Of a DNA stretch of 64,000 nucleotides, positions 272 through 56,000 are shown piece by piece. The position numbers and the translations under genes are program-made. Origin of the DNA: Eledone cirrhosa (taxonomy: Eukaryota); contig OZ024746.1 in NCBI GenBank assembly GCA_964016885.1, positions 51,460,001-51,524,000 of the forward strand, given 5' to 3'. Position 1 is the stretch's first letter; each line of letters opens with the position of its first letter. The notes below the pieces were generated by a model. It did not search any database. It saw nothing but the letters and a program-made list of their open reading frames with translations, and was not told where the DNA came from.

Positions 272-475
272 AACGAAGGAAGTGTGGTAAGGAACCAGAT
301 GGACCATAACGCACCAGAGTACTCAATACTTATTTCTGTCCAGAAATAGCCGTCGCAACGGCTTGAGCTCTGCCGTCGAGGTTAAACATTTTCCTATTAC
401 CCACTCTACTACCCTAAGTATTGAGTACTCTGGTGCGTTATGGTACATCTGTTTCCTTACCACACTTCCTCCGTT
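272..475. mobile_element. Family A fold-back insertion (PLE-type terminal fragments, 3' half of a hammerhead) in (TA)n
   Basis: aacgaaggaagtgtggtaagg...caatactta (272-331) is the reverse complement of taagtattg...cacttcctccgtt (415-475); TA runs on both sides; related copies at ~920, 2108, 14819, 49638, 51769, 52462. Confidence 0.8.
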
Positions 476-640
476 ATATATATATATATATATATATATA
501 TATATATATATATATATATATATATATACATTCATATATATATCCCTTTGCTTATATATATATATATATTATATATACAACCCTTATCGAGTCCTCTCTG
601 GGATTTAGTCTTTTTCTTTATTATTATTACTAACATATAT

Positions 641-822
641 AGGGCGGTATCGGTATAGTGCTGGACGACGTGCTTCAGGGCATAGAGTTTATGTTCTGAG
701 TTCAAATCCTGCTGAGGTTAACTTTGCCGTTCATCCATATGAGGTCAATAAAATATAGTACCAGTAATGCCCTGCGGTCGATTTAATCGAATTCCCCCAA
801 ATTGTTGGCCTTGTGCCTAAAA
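641..822 (+). mobile_element. tRNA-derived SINE, diverged copy
   Basis: B-box gagttcaaatcc followed by the family body (ctttgcc.ttcatcc...aaaata.agtaccag) and tail ggccttgtgcctaaa. Confidence 0.8.
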
Positions 823-919
823 TCATACATACATACATTCACACAGACACACACATACACGCGCGCGCACACACACACACACACACACACACTTATATAT
901 ATATATATATATATAAGAT

Positions 920-1049
920 AAGATACCAGGAGGACCATAACACACCAGAGTACTCAATATTTAGGGTAGTAGAGTGGGTAATAGAAAAAGAGTTTGGATC
1001 TAGCTGTCGAAACGGCCGGAGCTCAGCCGTCGGGGCCCTGATTTTTATC
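920..1049. mobile_element. Family A variant fold-back fragment
   Basis: accataacacaccagagtactcaat arm joined to an opposite-orientation tagctgtcgaaacggccggagctcagccgtcgggg arm, between TA runs. Confidence 0.65.
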
Positions 1050-1094
1050 ATATATATATGTATATAAATATATATATATATATATAAATATATA

Positions 1095-1642
1095 TAGTAA
1101 TAATAATAAATTTGAAGACTAAAATCCAAAGAGGGCTCGATAAGGATAAATATATATCAAATATATAAGAACCGTAGAGCAAATATTTATTAAAATAACA
1201 GATTAAAGTTTAAGCAAAGAATCGCTGCTTTCACCCTTAAAACTAACAAAGTCAATCTGTAAACGCAGAAGTGGATATTTCAAAAAACGTTGCAACCGGA
1301 GGAAGACAGGAAGACGATACTTTAGTTCGTGGAAACGTTCCCTGGCAAAGAACGGGAAAAAACGAATATAATACGTCATTAATAGGGTGGTGGATTGGCA
1401 GTATCGGTAGAGGGTCGGACGCCATGCTTTCCAGCATAGTTACGTCCCTTTACGATCTGAGTTCAAATCCCGCCGAGGTTGACTTTGCCTTTCATCCTTA
1501 CGGGGTCGATAAAATAAAGTACCAGTAATGCACTGGGTAATTGCTGGCCTTGTGCCTAAAGTAGAAACTATTAATAGGAGCGGGAAAAACAATTACGCGC
1601 AAAGACAGAACCACGTTTATGGTATAAAAGATGTCGTAGACT
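1095..1642 (-). mobile_element. Family C interspersed repeat anchored in (TA)n, interrupted by a SINE
   Basis: Terminus tagtaataataataaatttgaagactaaaatccaaagagggctcga recurs next to TA runs at 21003, 49581, 52259 and (reverse) 582-631; orientation inferred. Confidence 0.6.
1384..1568 (+). mobile_element. Full-length tRNA-derived SINE with target-site duplication
   Basis: A-box-like tggcagtatcgg, B-box gagttcaaatcc, central gcctttcatccttacggggtcgataaaataaagtacc; attaatagg on both sides. Confidence 0.9.
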
Positions 1643-1964
1643 ATATATATATACATATATATATACATATATATACATATATATACATATATACACACAC
1701 ACACATATATATGTATATATATATATATATATATGTGTGTGTGTATATATATGTATATATATGTATATATATATATATATATAATAAATACAATATCGGA
1801 GAAAGCTTTTTAGCGATACTCCGGCTAAATTCCAACTCACTCAACAAACATTAGGAAATAAGTGATTATATTCCCAATTATGTGTTCGGGGTGCTAACTA
1901 AAAGTATTGCGTGGAAAATTGGCTGTATTATTTCAAATGAGACATATCTAATATATCTCTTCCC

Positions 1965-2087
1965 AGACGGACGTCTCGTTTCATTATAGGACTCCTACAA
2001 TTTGGGTGAAATTATACCAATTTATGTAGGAGCTTGTATACCATCAATAGATATATATTCAAGTGGGCTCCTATAATTCATCAGTCT
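1965..2087 (-). ncRNA. Hammerhead ribozyme motif with ~95-nt branched stem II
   Basis: Minus strand: CUGAUGA-AUUAUAGGA...UCCUAUAAU-GAAA-CG(AGA)CG-UC; 9-bp perfect base of stem II; stem I imperfect. Confidence 0.7.
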
Positions 2088-52603: not shown

Positions 52604-53060
52604 ATATATATATATATATATATATATATATATTAGTTGTCTCACTCGCTTTACGCGATTTACTTGTGCCAATAGCTTTTTTTAGTTATTGCTCGTACCA
52701 ACCTGAGGTATATGATTTTTAATGCGATGAAATATCAATGATTGTTGGCAAATCACTGACGAAGGACTATTTTTATCATATGTAACCCATGTGCAACCAC
52801 GCAGTATTCTTCTTTCTTCTAATGTTTTTTATATATATATATATATGGATATATATATATATATATACGGATATTTATATATATATATAAATGGATATAT
52901 TTATATATATATACATACTTATATACATGTACATATATGATTTTTAATGCGATGAAATATCAATGATGGTTGGCAAATCACTGATGAAGGACTAATTTTA
53001 TCATATGTAACCCATGTGCAACCACGCAGTATTCTTCTTTCTTCTCATGTTTTTTATATA

Positions 53061-54418
53061 ACATCATGATCATCATCGTTTAACGTCCATATTCCACGCT
53101 TGCATGGGTTTGGACGGGAGTTTTCCCACTTGAGGCAAGAGGGTTGTCTTGCTCGCATAGGACTGTCTGGCTGGTTTTCTACGGCTGGATGCCCTTCCTA
53201 ACACCAACCACATTTACAGTGTGGAACTGGGAGGTTTTTACCGTGTTACCTACACGGCCATATTACAGCGTGGACTGTGTGTTTTTTTGTCGTGACACCT
53301 ACACGACCTCATTTGTTTCGGGCTGGATGTTGTGACACCAACATAATTTTACATTGAAAGGGGTGGTGTGGATGGGGTGTGAGTAGTGGGACGGGGGTGT
53401 ATTTTATTAGAGGTGCCTACTGACTGTAGTAGGTTTCACTTTGTACTTAGGTAAGGCGGGTCTTCTCTATTACTGTGTAGGGCCAAAGATCTCGGTCCAG
53501 TGACATTGTCTTGGAGAGGTGTAAGTGTGTGAGGTCGGAATTTATCAAGTCGTCCCAGGTTTTTCTGGGTCTGCCTACTCCGTGGCTACCGTCTATTTTT
53601 ATTGCCCTGCACTTTTTTATACAGCTGTCGTCTTTTATGCGCATCACGTGACCATACCAACGTAGTCTTCTCTCAAGTAAACAACATCTGATCCCTCTCA
53701 TTTCTAATTTCTCCCTTAGTTCGTTTATGCTTTACACATCCAGCGGAGCATGCAAGTTTCGTTTCTCTCCAGTATGCGTATATCCTCTGCACACAATGCC
53801 AAGGCCTCACTGCCATGTAACATTGCTGTTCGTATGCAGGCATCATACAGCCTGCCTTTCATTTTTAGAGAGAACCCTTTAGCGGCCAATAGTGGTATAA
53901 GATCTCTGAACTTTTTCCATCACCTTCTGACTCTAGCTACTGTACTTTCAGAGCACCCTCCCCCATTGCTGATTTTATCACCCAGGTAACGGAAGCTGTC
54001 CACTATTTCTATAGAACCATCTGTGCAATGGAATGAGTTAGTATTCTGTGGGCACTTGCTACTTATTGCACCAGAGCACCGGCCACATATAAAATCTATA
54101 TTCTTAGTTAGCTTACCTGTGATCCCACTACATCTTTTATGTACCCATACTTTGCATTTGGGACATAACATGGAGTTTCTACCTACTCCCTTCCTACACA
54201 CTGAGCATGGCCATTTCCCAGATGGGACCAGTGCCCTATTTTCCGTCCTACAAACTAGAACTTTAGTCTTAGACAAGTTAAATTTAAGGCCTTTTGATTC
54301 TAGGCCATGCTTCCATGTTTGGAATTTCTTCTCTAGTTCAGCCATTGATTCAGCTATGAGCGTTAGATCATCTGCATATAGGAGTTCCCATGGGCAGCCG
54401 GTCTTGCACTCCTCTGTC
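53061..54418 (-). mobile_element. 5'-truncated RTE-clade LINE with (GAT)n tail; RT pseudogene ~53447-54418
   Basis: ELLYADDL, SKTKVL, VDSFRYLG, in-frame stop at ~53920, RRLRWYGHVMR, GRPRKTWDD; tail ggacgttaaacgatgatgatcatgatg on minus strand. Confidence 0.92.
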
Positions 54419-55197
54419 ATATATATATATATATATATGGATATATATATATGTATATATATATACGGATATTTATATATATATATATATATATAAATGG
54501 ATATATTTATATATACATACTTATATACATGTACATACATACATGTATGCATACATGCTTACATACATATATATACTCACCCACCCACACATATGCATGT
54601 TTATTTAATAAACGTGCTGGTGAATTGCTTTTTTTTTAAAAACTATGTACATAGTTCCAGAATAACCTGTATATGTGCATTACTAAAGATGCACCTGTGT
54701 GTACTTAGCATTCTACATATGTATACACACACCACACACACATATGTATATACACAGACAAATCACCCCTTCCCCCCACATATATATGCACATTTATATA
54801 TGTACACATACATATGCATACATATATGTATATATTATATATATATATATATATTATATATAATTATATATATATATATATTATATATAATTATATATAT
54901 ATAAAAATGTTTGTGTGTATATATTATATGCAAGCATGCATGTAGTTGTGTGTGTGAGTTTAATAGTCACACCAGATATATGTATATATACTCATACACA
55001 AGTAAATATATATATATATATTTATTTTTATCACTATATATATATATATATTTATTATTATTACTATATATATATACATACATATATATATAAATATTAT
55101 TATTACTATATATATATATATATATATATGTATATATATATATATATGTATATATATATAGTAATAATAATATATATATATGTATATATATAGTAAT

Positions 55198-55386
55198 AAT
55201 TGTTTCTACTTTAGGCACAAGGCCAGCAATTACCCAGTGTATTACTGGTACTTTATTTTATCGACCCTGTAAGGATGAAAGGCAAAGTCAACCTCGGCGG
55301 GATTTGAACTCAGATCGTAAAGGGACGTAACTATGCGGGAAAGCATGGCGTCCGACTCTCTACCGATACTGCCAATCCACCGCCCT
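55198..55386 (-). mobile_element. Full-length tRNA-derived SINE
   Basis: Reverse complement of the 1384-1568 copy. Confidence 0.9.
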
Positions 55387-55510
55387 TATATATTTTAATA
55401 ATAATAAATATATATAATAATAAATATATATATATATATGTGTGTGTGTGTGTACCTATATACATATATAATATATATATATATATATATATATATATAT
55501 TATTATTACT

Positions 55511-55690
55511 ATTGGCAGTATCGGTAGAGGGTCGGGCGCCATGCTTTGAAGCATAGAGTTACCACCCTTTATGATCTGAGTTCAAATCCCGCCGAGGTTA
55601 ACTTTGCCTTTCATCCTTACAGGGTCGATAAAATAAAGTACCAGTAATACACTGGGTAATTGCTGGTCTTGTGCCTAAAGTAGAAACAAT
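55511..55690 (+). mobile_element. tRNA-derived SINE
   Basis: A/B boxes and full body; tattattacta on both sides. Confidence 0.9.
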
Positions 55691-55744
55691 TATTACTATA
55701 TATATACATATATATATATATATATGTATATGTATATGTATATG

Positions 55745-56000
55745 AAAATGGCGTAGGATAGAAGAAAGGAAAGGCACAGAAACGAAGAAAGAAATCCCCA
55801 GTCACTGAAGAGGTCACAGAGTGTGTGACGAAAGAACTATGACTATATATATATAAACAACTATCTGGTTGTGGAACCAACCAACCAACCAGAAATTTAT
55901 AAATTTGTAAATTTATAAATATTTAATAAATTAAATTGAAGTGAAAGCAACTGGTGCGTGTGTTTCTTATTGGCAACATGACCCTCCCAAAGTATAACAA
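55745..56000 (+). mobile_element. Family B PLE 3' terminal fragment ending at the short terminus
   Basis: Hammerhead followed by tail ...ccctcccaaagtataacaa then (TA)n; same terminal motif as PLE1. Confidence 0.85.
55800..55844 (+). ncRNA. Well-formed minimal hammerhead ribozyme (family B)
   Basis: AGUCA-CUGAAGA-G-GUCACA(GAGUG)UGUGAC-GAAA-GAAC-UA-UGACU; perfect stems I and II. Confidence 0.9.

Follow-up and report, generated by a model that had tools for sequence, protein, structure and literature searches.

The window analysed in this study is a 64,000-nt stretch of the Eledone cirrhosa contig OZ024746.1 (positions 51,460,001-51,524,000), which has a GC content of 35% and is rich in (TA)n; the genome measures 3.0 Gb. 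The window carries insertions made of two 3'-terminal fragments of what, judging from coding motifs, are Penelope-like elements (PLEs), joined head to head and flanked on both sides by microsatellite. An arm that stops at the distal of two sites has a long end, an arm that stops at the earlier site has a short end, and the stretch between both sites is called the tail. An earlier note on this DNA proposed that such fold-backs combine one long and one short arm, and the insertions on which it drew are present at about the positions reported. The combination was found for family A (2108, 14819, 49638, 51769, and 52462), family H (24352/26680 and 36682/36865), family J (33292/33776 and 44360/44799), and family B (4227/7920), and family E, which had been called probable, also joins a long and a short arm (21092/23240). 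This gives 11 long+short insertions in the window (five of A, two of H, two of J, one of B, and one of E), and the insertion at 272-475, noted as an exception, indeed has two long ends. The features are the following.

273-474: family A fold-back with two long ends (the exception)
916-1049: older family A fold-back with a truncated long arm and a short arm
2109-2281: family A fold-back, long on the left and short on the right; seen directly (the short arm is diverged and the pairing script missed it)
4227-7920, forward strand: family B PLE with an inverted short arm at 4227, a hammerhead core at 7634, and a direct arm reaching a minor long end (+46)
about 4554-7326, forward strand: interior of the same PLE, a broken reverse transcriptase (RT)/GIY-YIG open reading frame (ORF)
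14819-15003: family A fold-back, short on the left and long on the right, with the tail at 14924-15003
14932-14955, forward strand: bulged hairpin (predicted RNA structure), 8 nt past the family A short terminus
21093-23246: family E fold-back, short on the left and long on the right, with an expanded internal (TA)n and a hairpin at 23154-23175
24353-26677: family H fold-back, long on the left (130-nt tail) and short on the right
33293-33776: family J fold-back, short and long, with a hammerhead core at 33587 and a hairpin at 33695-33714
36682-36865: family H pair with non-overlapping arms, a tail-only long arm and a short arm
44362-44799: family J fold-back, short and long
49639-49770: family A pair whose arms do not overlap, the long arm ending 4 nt from the short terminus
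51770-51896: family A pair whose arms do not overlap, with a 3-nt microhomology at the joint
52260-52417: cross-family junction between a long arm of family D and a short arm of family C
52463-52603: family A fold-back, long and short

Three of the window pairs share no sequence between their arms, the long arm being tail only (36682, 49639, and 51770). The arms of the family H insertion at 24353-26677 extend into the endonuclease (EN)-coding 3' end of a Hydra-type PLE. One arm of the family E insertion holds a perfect (TA)206 (window 22386-22797) where the other arm has about 6 units; this is an expansion after insertion.

Termini and their pairing were tabulated genome-wide. Loci were gathered with queries from each family, which in all but one query set were taken from upstream of the short end. 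An unbiased sample came from 60 pieces of 10 kb drawn at random from the same genome (600 kb); these pieces and by-catch make up the query-independent pairs. Ends were mapped on one natural copy per family. Before counting we dropped BLAST matches that were of low complexity or fell below 78% identity or 36 bits, arms at locus edges, L053 (a duplicate of L052), and four cross-family pairs, L250 and L159 being doubtful (TA-rich spacers). The pairing script was limited to same-family head-to-head arms with a gap of at most 90 nt, and wider gaps lay outside it. The 3' ends are bimodal, with two sharp peaks, in seven of the eight families tabulated (A, B, B2, D, E, H, and J), which bears out the claim that the early terminus is fixed. 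As the note had stated, the short end lies on a TA-like motif. Tails measure 80 nt in A, 58 in B, 57 in B2, 90 in D, 98 in E, 130 in H, 88 in J, and 40 in C. Minor ends occur near the long end in B, B2, and J. The insertion at 4227/7920 is long+short as proposed, but its tail of about 45 nt marks only such a minor long end, the commonest one in B lying at +58.

Among 169 same-family head-to-head pairs, 160 were long+short, two long+long (one of these calls, L234, is perhaps a merge across a (TA)5 tract), and one short+short, and six had a truncated or read-through arm; without one segmental duplicate, 159 of 168 pairs are long+short. In the query-independent set of 74 pairs, 70 were long+short, one was short+short, and three combined a short arm with a truncated long arm (binomial p = 3e-20 against 50:50 for the 71 classifiable pairs). 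Long and short ends are equally frequent in the 600 kb of random DNA (32 and 32), and 62 of these 64 termini adjoin (TA)n, as had been noticed in the window. Another 20 stretches of 10 kb were taken around long copies; nine of them contained both ends, at a spacing of 0.6-6 kb, and every one of the nine was long+short. The ORF-bearing arm may terminate at either site; in L332, L339, and L347 the whole ORF is on the short-ending arm. Family B2 (window 3054-3530 and 55745-56000), which is related to B and has the same short-site sequence followed by a different 57-nt tail, gave 13 long+short pairs out of 13. Neither termini nor pairing are random, and the long+short rule is real and goes far beyond chance. 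The random pieces contained 14 short long+short pairs, which extrapolates to roughly 70,000 in the genome if the sample is typical. Since such pairs are common in the sample, PLEs are a major source of interrupted palindromes in this genome.

The 159 pairs carry 147 distinct junction signatures, which argues that they arose in independent events, and the arms of one pair diverge by 1-6%. Raw reads were available for three other samples from one other study; these are reduced-representation libraries with uneven depth, and their evidence applies to families, not to window loci with their own flanks. Family A is represented by about 20,000 reads per sample; loose (AT)n ends at the short site number 1,035-1,100, and there are opposite-strand joints, one of which, running from the tail interior to the 5' pile-up of this family (see below), was seen in 56, 168, and 133 reads from two to three starts. 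For family J, the short site is followed by a terminal (TA)n in 5,288-8,019 reads, and beyond the long site depth drops about fifteen-fold. Short ends and strand-switch joints are thus present in other samples, and the arrangement is very unlikely to be an assembly or amplification chimera, a concern that the earlier note had raised. A miniature inverted-repeat transposable element (MITE) or foldback DNA transposon was rejected, as the two ends differ by the tail instead of being identical terminal inverted repeats and the 147 distinct junctions among 159 pairs give no unit length.

By sequence, the families are the ends of EN+ PLEs. RT and GIY-YIG-like EN translations are linked at the motif level to the ends of A, B, B2, D, E, H, and J, the ORFs lying upstream of the termini in agreement with the original assignment to PLEs, and the inverted 5'-truncated copy with a one-sided tail, as in EN+ PLEs, is present. 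In L339, L347, and L348 the ORF is preceded by a read-through pseudo-long terminal repeat (pLTR) and followed by a pLTR end, and L103 and L148 read into ORF starts. A Pfam search with four PLE fragments of the window gave no match. The Hydra clade is characterized by DKT, an RW-containing N-terminal motif, a CxCx5C linker, and the lack of a CCHH motif, and it has (TA)n insertion and hammerheads (PMC8557442). DKT takes the place of DKG in the D, E, and J translations, the CxCx5C linker precedes EN in A, D, H, and J, and the N-terminal motif in A, E, and J is RWR, not RWK. DKT, the linker, (TA)n insertion, and hammerhead motifs, together with a by-eye similarity to the supplementary alignment of PMC8557442, liken A, D, E, H, and J to the Hydra clade including Hydra-1_Obim, and we consider them putative Hydra-type PLEs. 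B and B2 have a CX4CxxC linker (a full CX2-5CxxC finger) and the broken window copy of C shows CxxC only; by this finger, B, B2, and C are candidate Neptune/Nematis-type PLEs. The families had been called unrelated. All of them are PLEs, of two clade types, and five are Hydra-type. The B and B2 ORFs also contain an asparagine-rich low-complexity segment (window 4380-4980; L346) that resembles the N-rich inserts of Adineta PLEs (PMC3846280).

A hammerhead descriptor matched five of the eight references (A, B2, E, H, and J); a core was also seen in B, five long A copies have the full motif, and the hammerheads of C and D were judged by eye, the D core being a variant. Four of the five long A copies have a U3-A8 core, a variant described previously (PMC4209133). 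The hammerhead motifs lie upstream of the short site; in five references, cleavage is predicted 17-157 nt ahead of it. About 90% of the family A copies break off at the stem II apical loop of the hammerhead, some 50-70 nt before the short site (e.g., window 14866-14880 and L025:1631). This 5' pile-up, centered about 57 nt from the short site, may be a transcription start or an RT stop; an extra cap G there was unsupported (G 10, T 10, C 6, and A 1 among non-continuing copies). Because the 5' ends of most A copies lie about 50-63 nt before the short site, the window A fold-backs keep only the 3' half of the ribozyme, and none of the seven has the 5' half of the core. For family A, the description of the insertions as ribozyme-bearing is only half correct. 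There is no pile-up of 5' ends at the hammerhead cut (four of 97 A arms were flagged and two truly end there), and because 93 of 97 arms were scored as passing the predicted cut, the template would be mostly uncleaved or religated RNA. Non-LTR retrozymes consist of head-to-tail tandem monomers, each with a complete hammerhead (10.64898/2026.07.22.740005). We rejected this class because the arrangement here is head to head and the family A fold-backs are without the 5' hammerhead core. Dual minimal hammerheads on opposite strands, 100-700 bp apart, have been reported near truncated PLEs (PMC4209133); they are opposite-strand pairs as here, and the account, in the portion available, is without ends or asymmetry.

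Both sites are internal to the RNA and resemble the target. Copies that read through past the long end into the ORF start occur in five families (L148 in A, L103 in B, L339 in D, L348 in E, and L347 in J), so the long end is internal and is not the RNA end. An alternating TA run overlaps the terminus by at least 3 nt at 12 of 14 termini, compared to 25% of nearby positions (p = 3e-6). In L103 the direct arm runs 110 nt beyond the long site into the ORF start before (TA)n, with a long inverted arm as partner, and it is possible that this is a third start site.

A bulged hairpin follows the sites in the Hydra-type families. The descriptor (RCTC-stem-TN-GAGY with a paired outer base) was built after viewing A, E, and J. 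On five natural copies (about 17 kb), all seven sense matches lie 6-10 nt after the short or the long site, and there were two antisense matches; shuffled copies gave 0.02-0.15 matches per copy. In long arms the hairpin is found after the short site in 78 of 95 cases for A, 33 of 51 for D, 8 of 11 for E, 15 of 18 for H, and 27 of 29 for J. It is also found after the long site in all four Hydra-type families with a read-through copy (A, D, E, and J). The inner stem varies between families, with pairing kept. The second hairpin of family D was found after the motif had been noted and is the only prospective test. As the second hairpin is present only in the 5' read-through pLTR copy, ORF-length cDNAs would need a circular RNA, as proposed in PMC4209133, or a template jump. 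In the supplement of PMC8557442, the consensus just before Hydra-1_Obim ends in the same bulged hairpin, unlabelled, and the Hydra-clade account in the accessible part of that paper contains no tail hairpin or pairing rule.

We favor, with moderate confidence, the reading that these head-to-head PLE insertions, with their two fixed internal stop sites, are formed by twin priming, one site being used per nicked (TA)n strand. The GIY-YIG endonuclease would nick both strands of the (TA)n target, and a dimeric RT on one RNA would use each start site once. The start sites may be positioned by the hairpin, aided by 2-7 nt of primer pairing. Both cDNAs would run toward the RNA 5' end and be joined via microhomology or RNA hairpin complementarity, and the tail would be the stretch between the two start sites. 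Among 163 long+short junctions (cross-family and duplicate ones included), 66 overlap by microhomology or a palindrome, 7 are flush, and 90 have unassigned bases. Twin priming had been proposed from the window with one primer at the RNA end and the other at an internal site. The read-through in A, B, D, E, and J speaks against the first half of that proposal, but two priming events do fit better than one, as the arms of 29 of the 159 pairs (18 of 70 in the unbiased set) do not overlap, the long arm being tail only and sharing nothing with the short arm. Subfamily variants are mostly common to both arms (in J, 70 shared compared to 6 one-arm variants, where 15 would be expected if the arms were independent; in B, 22 compared to 8), which favors one RNA or identical RNAs. 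A narrower form of twin priming, obligate double priming on one RNA, is offered more tentatively. A dimeric RT would be docked on the two bulged hairpins with a TA-like site under each active site, and both strands would be extended at once. If true, it would explain the tail, the inverted arm, and the microsatellite targeting together, and it would represent a template-positioning signal in the closest relatives of telomerase.

Several results weigh against twin priming on one hairpin-bearing RNA. With symmetric detection both arms reach equally far 5' (29 compared to 36, p = 0.46), giving no head start for the short primer, and the long-arm 5' ends are only weakly clustered at the short site (17 within 12 nt; the bins on either side hold 14 and 6). 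The long arm extends beyond the short site in 130 of the 159 pairs, and strand displacement would be needed if one RNA is used. In family A, 57 variants are shared and 79 are found in one arm, counts that are confounded by query selection. Two apparent cross-family junctions (52260-52417 and L022) would need two RNAs or a later deletion. Family C is mostly short-ended and shows little pairing: 28 of 30 genomic copies end at one site, its long site is known from two copies, of which one stops at it and the other runs on, and no fold-back of two family C arms was seen among the window copies (27084-30100 and 31630-33035) and the 30 genomic copies. Family K (window 23606-24196, 38904-39012, and 49385-49487) has a hammerhead-bearing end that is often followed by (CA)n or (ACAT)n instead of (TA)n, and in 30 loci it has essentially a single terminus, with no copy paired head to head; the pair at 23606/24196, perhaps the family G that the earlier note had listed with equal ends, is not a clean fold-back, its arms being separated by unrelated sequence with short repeats. 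By the descriptor B, B2, and C have no hairpin, yet B and B2 follow the long+short rule. When single copies of D, E, and H were scanned over their full length, the strict descriptor did not detect the first hairpin. Minimum-energy folds were computed for four read-through regions (z -2.4, -1.0, -2.2, and -0.9), and the hairpins came out in only two of them, those of A and J. In PMC11167929, as far as the accessible text goes, neither homology between the start site and the cut DNA nor a strand difference in the start site is reported.

Another possibility, which we consider unlikely, is that two RNA molecules are held in an asymmetric or ordered complex, the first strand starting at one site and the second at the other. 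The 130 overlapping pairs would then arise without strand displacement, and the two cross-family junctions would be accounted for. The arms, however, nearly always belong to one subfamily, though activity of one subfamily at a time could explain this, and an extra rule would be needed against long+long and short+short. Somewhat less probable still is single priming at the long site, after which the cDNA would fold at a hairpin and copy itself and EN would trim or resolve the copy at the short site, with non-overlap due to later deletion at the unstable palindrome center. Self-priming has been outlined in PMC3846280 and a tail made by EN-mediated resolution in PMC8557442. Long+short would arise automatically, many junctions lie within RNA hairpins, about 90% of A copies break off close to the stem II apical loop of the hammerhead, and the ATT preference of the endonuclease of PAc (Poseidon of Anolis) resembles the short-site motifs (PMC11167929). 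But the arms of 29 of the 159 pairs have no sequence in common, and in 58 pairs the short arm extends beyond the long arm in the 5' direction by 15 nt or more. In L332, L339, and L347 the whole ORF is on the short-ending arm, so the short arm is not a copy of the long arm there, and the same hairpin lies beyond both sites. Non-overlapping arms and ORF-length arms that end short exclude simple self-copying of a long cDNA. That fold-backs are copied whole, in a MITE-like manner, or are assembly or library chimeras is largely refuted and very improbable: a few junctions recur between loci (L140/L144/L157 and L142/L154/L168), but these are at microhomologies in loci picked by one query, and the variety of junctions, an arm divergence unlike that of fresh chimeras, and the raw reads of other samples all stand against it.

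Twin priming is well known for LINE-1, where the second target strand primes internally and an inversion results, the arms of which may be non-overlapping and joined at microhomology; first priming takes place at the poly(A) end and second priming at variable sites. In our set, an inverted non-overlapping segment is seen in 29 of 159 pairs. Unlike in LINE-1, both sites are internal and fixed, most arms overlap, and in the five families with read-through copies the long end does not correspond to a primer at the RNA 3' end. The closest biochemical parallel comes from PAc, for which it was found in vitro that both target strands are cut and extended, that two internal RT starts bound the tail, and that uncleaved RNA serves as template for a protein predicted to be a dimer (PMC11167929). 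Our families share with PAc the two internal start sites and, with 93 of 97 A arms scored as past the cut, a template that would be mostly uncleaved or religated. The PAc study, in the sections available, describes an AC-rich stem-loop and does not assign the two sites to the respective ends of a single insertion, and steps after priming are unvalidated. Unlike in PAc, both sites here have 2-7 nt in common with (TA)n, and in Hydra-type families they are followed by the repeated bulged hairpin.

The architecture itself is already known, and its novelty had been overstated. EN+ PLE insertions were described with an inverted 5'-truncated pLTR and an optional or often one-sided tail of 30-40 bp (PMC8557442 and PMC3846280). 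Of the inverted pLTRs one carries the tail, and the junctions are palindromic (PMC3846280); in vitro, RT was shown to start at two internal positions (PMC11167929). Published EN+ PLEs agree with ours in the head-to-head arm, one-sided tail, pLTR hammerhead, (TA)n target, palindromic junctions, and a tail toward or into the ORF start. They differ, as far as the accessible parts of these papers go, in that tails here are 40-130 nt and long+short pairing is near obligate and counted. How the inverted ends and tail of PLEs are built is called an open question in PMC8557442. The published literature searched, with older subscription papers outside it, contained no counted PLE pairing rule, no PLE twin-priming model, and no description of the hairpin. 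What we did not find in print is the near-obligate pairing, the non-overlapping arms, and, in Hydra-type families, the bulged hairpin that lies 6-10 nt past either end. The near-obligate rule constrains the mechanism, as both start sites must be used in one event instead of as alternatives, and the repeated hairpin offers a defined target for mutation in assays of a type already in use.

The window contains other repeats. An Rfam scan with E up to 1 gave 314 matches, and the best 150 were all sub-threshold microRNA models, nearly all on microsatellites. An imperfect inverted repeat of about 500 bp (3647-4141) contains (TA)n and a smaller inner fold-back (3853-3985), with no family assigned. 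A short repeat occurs at 1384-1570, 13907-14087, 14490-14689, 55205-55390, and 55510-55694 and has 22 matches in 200 kb of random DNA; it is probably a short interspersed element, and at other loci it is often inserted within PLE arms. Finally, a tandem array of about 218 copies of a 26-bp unit occupies 57250-62919.

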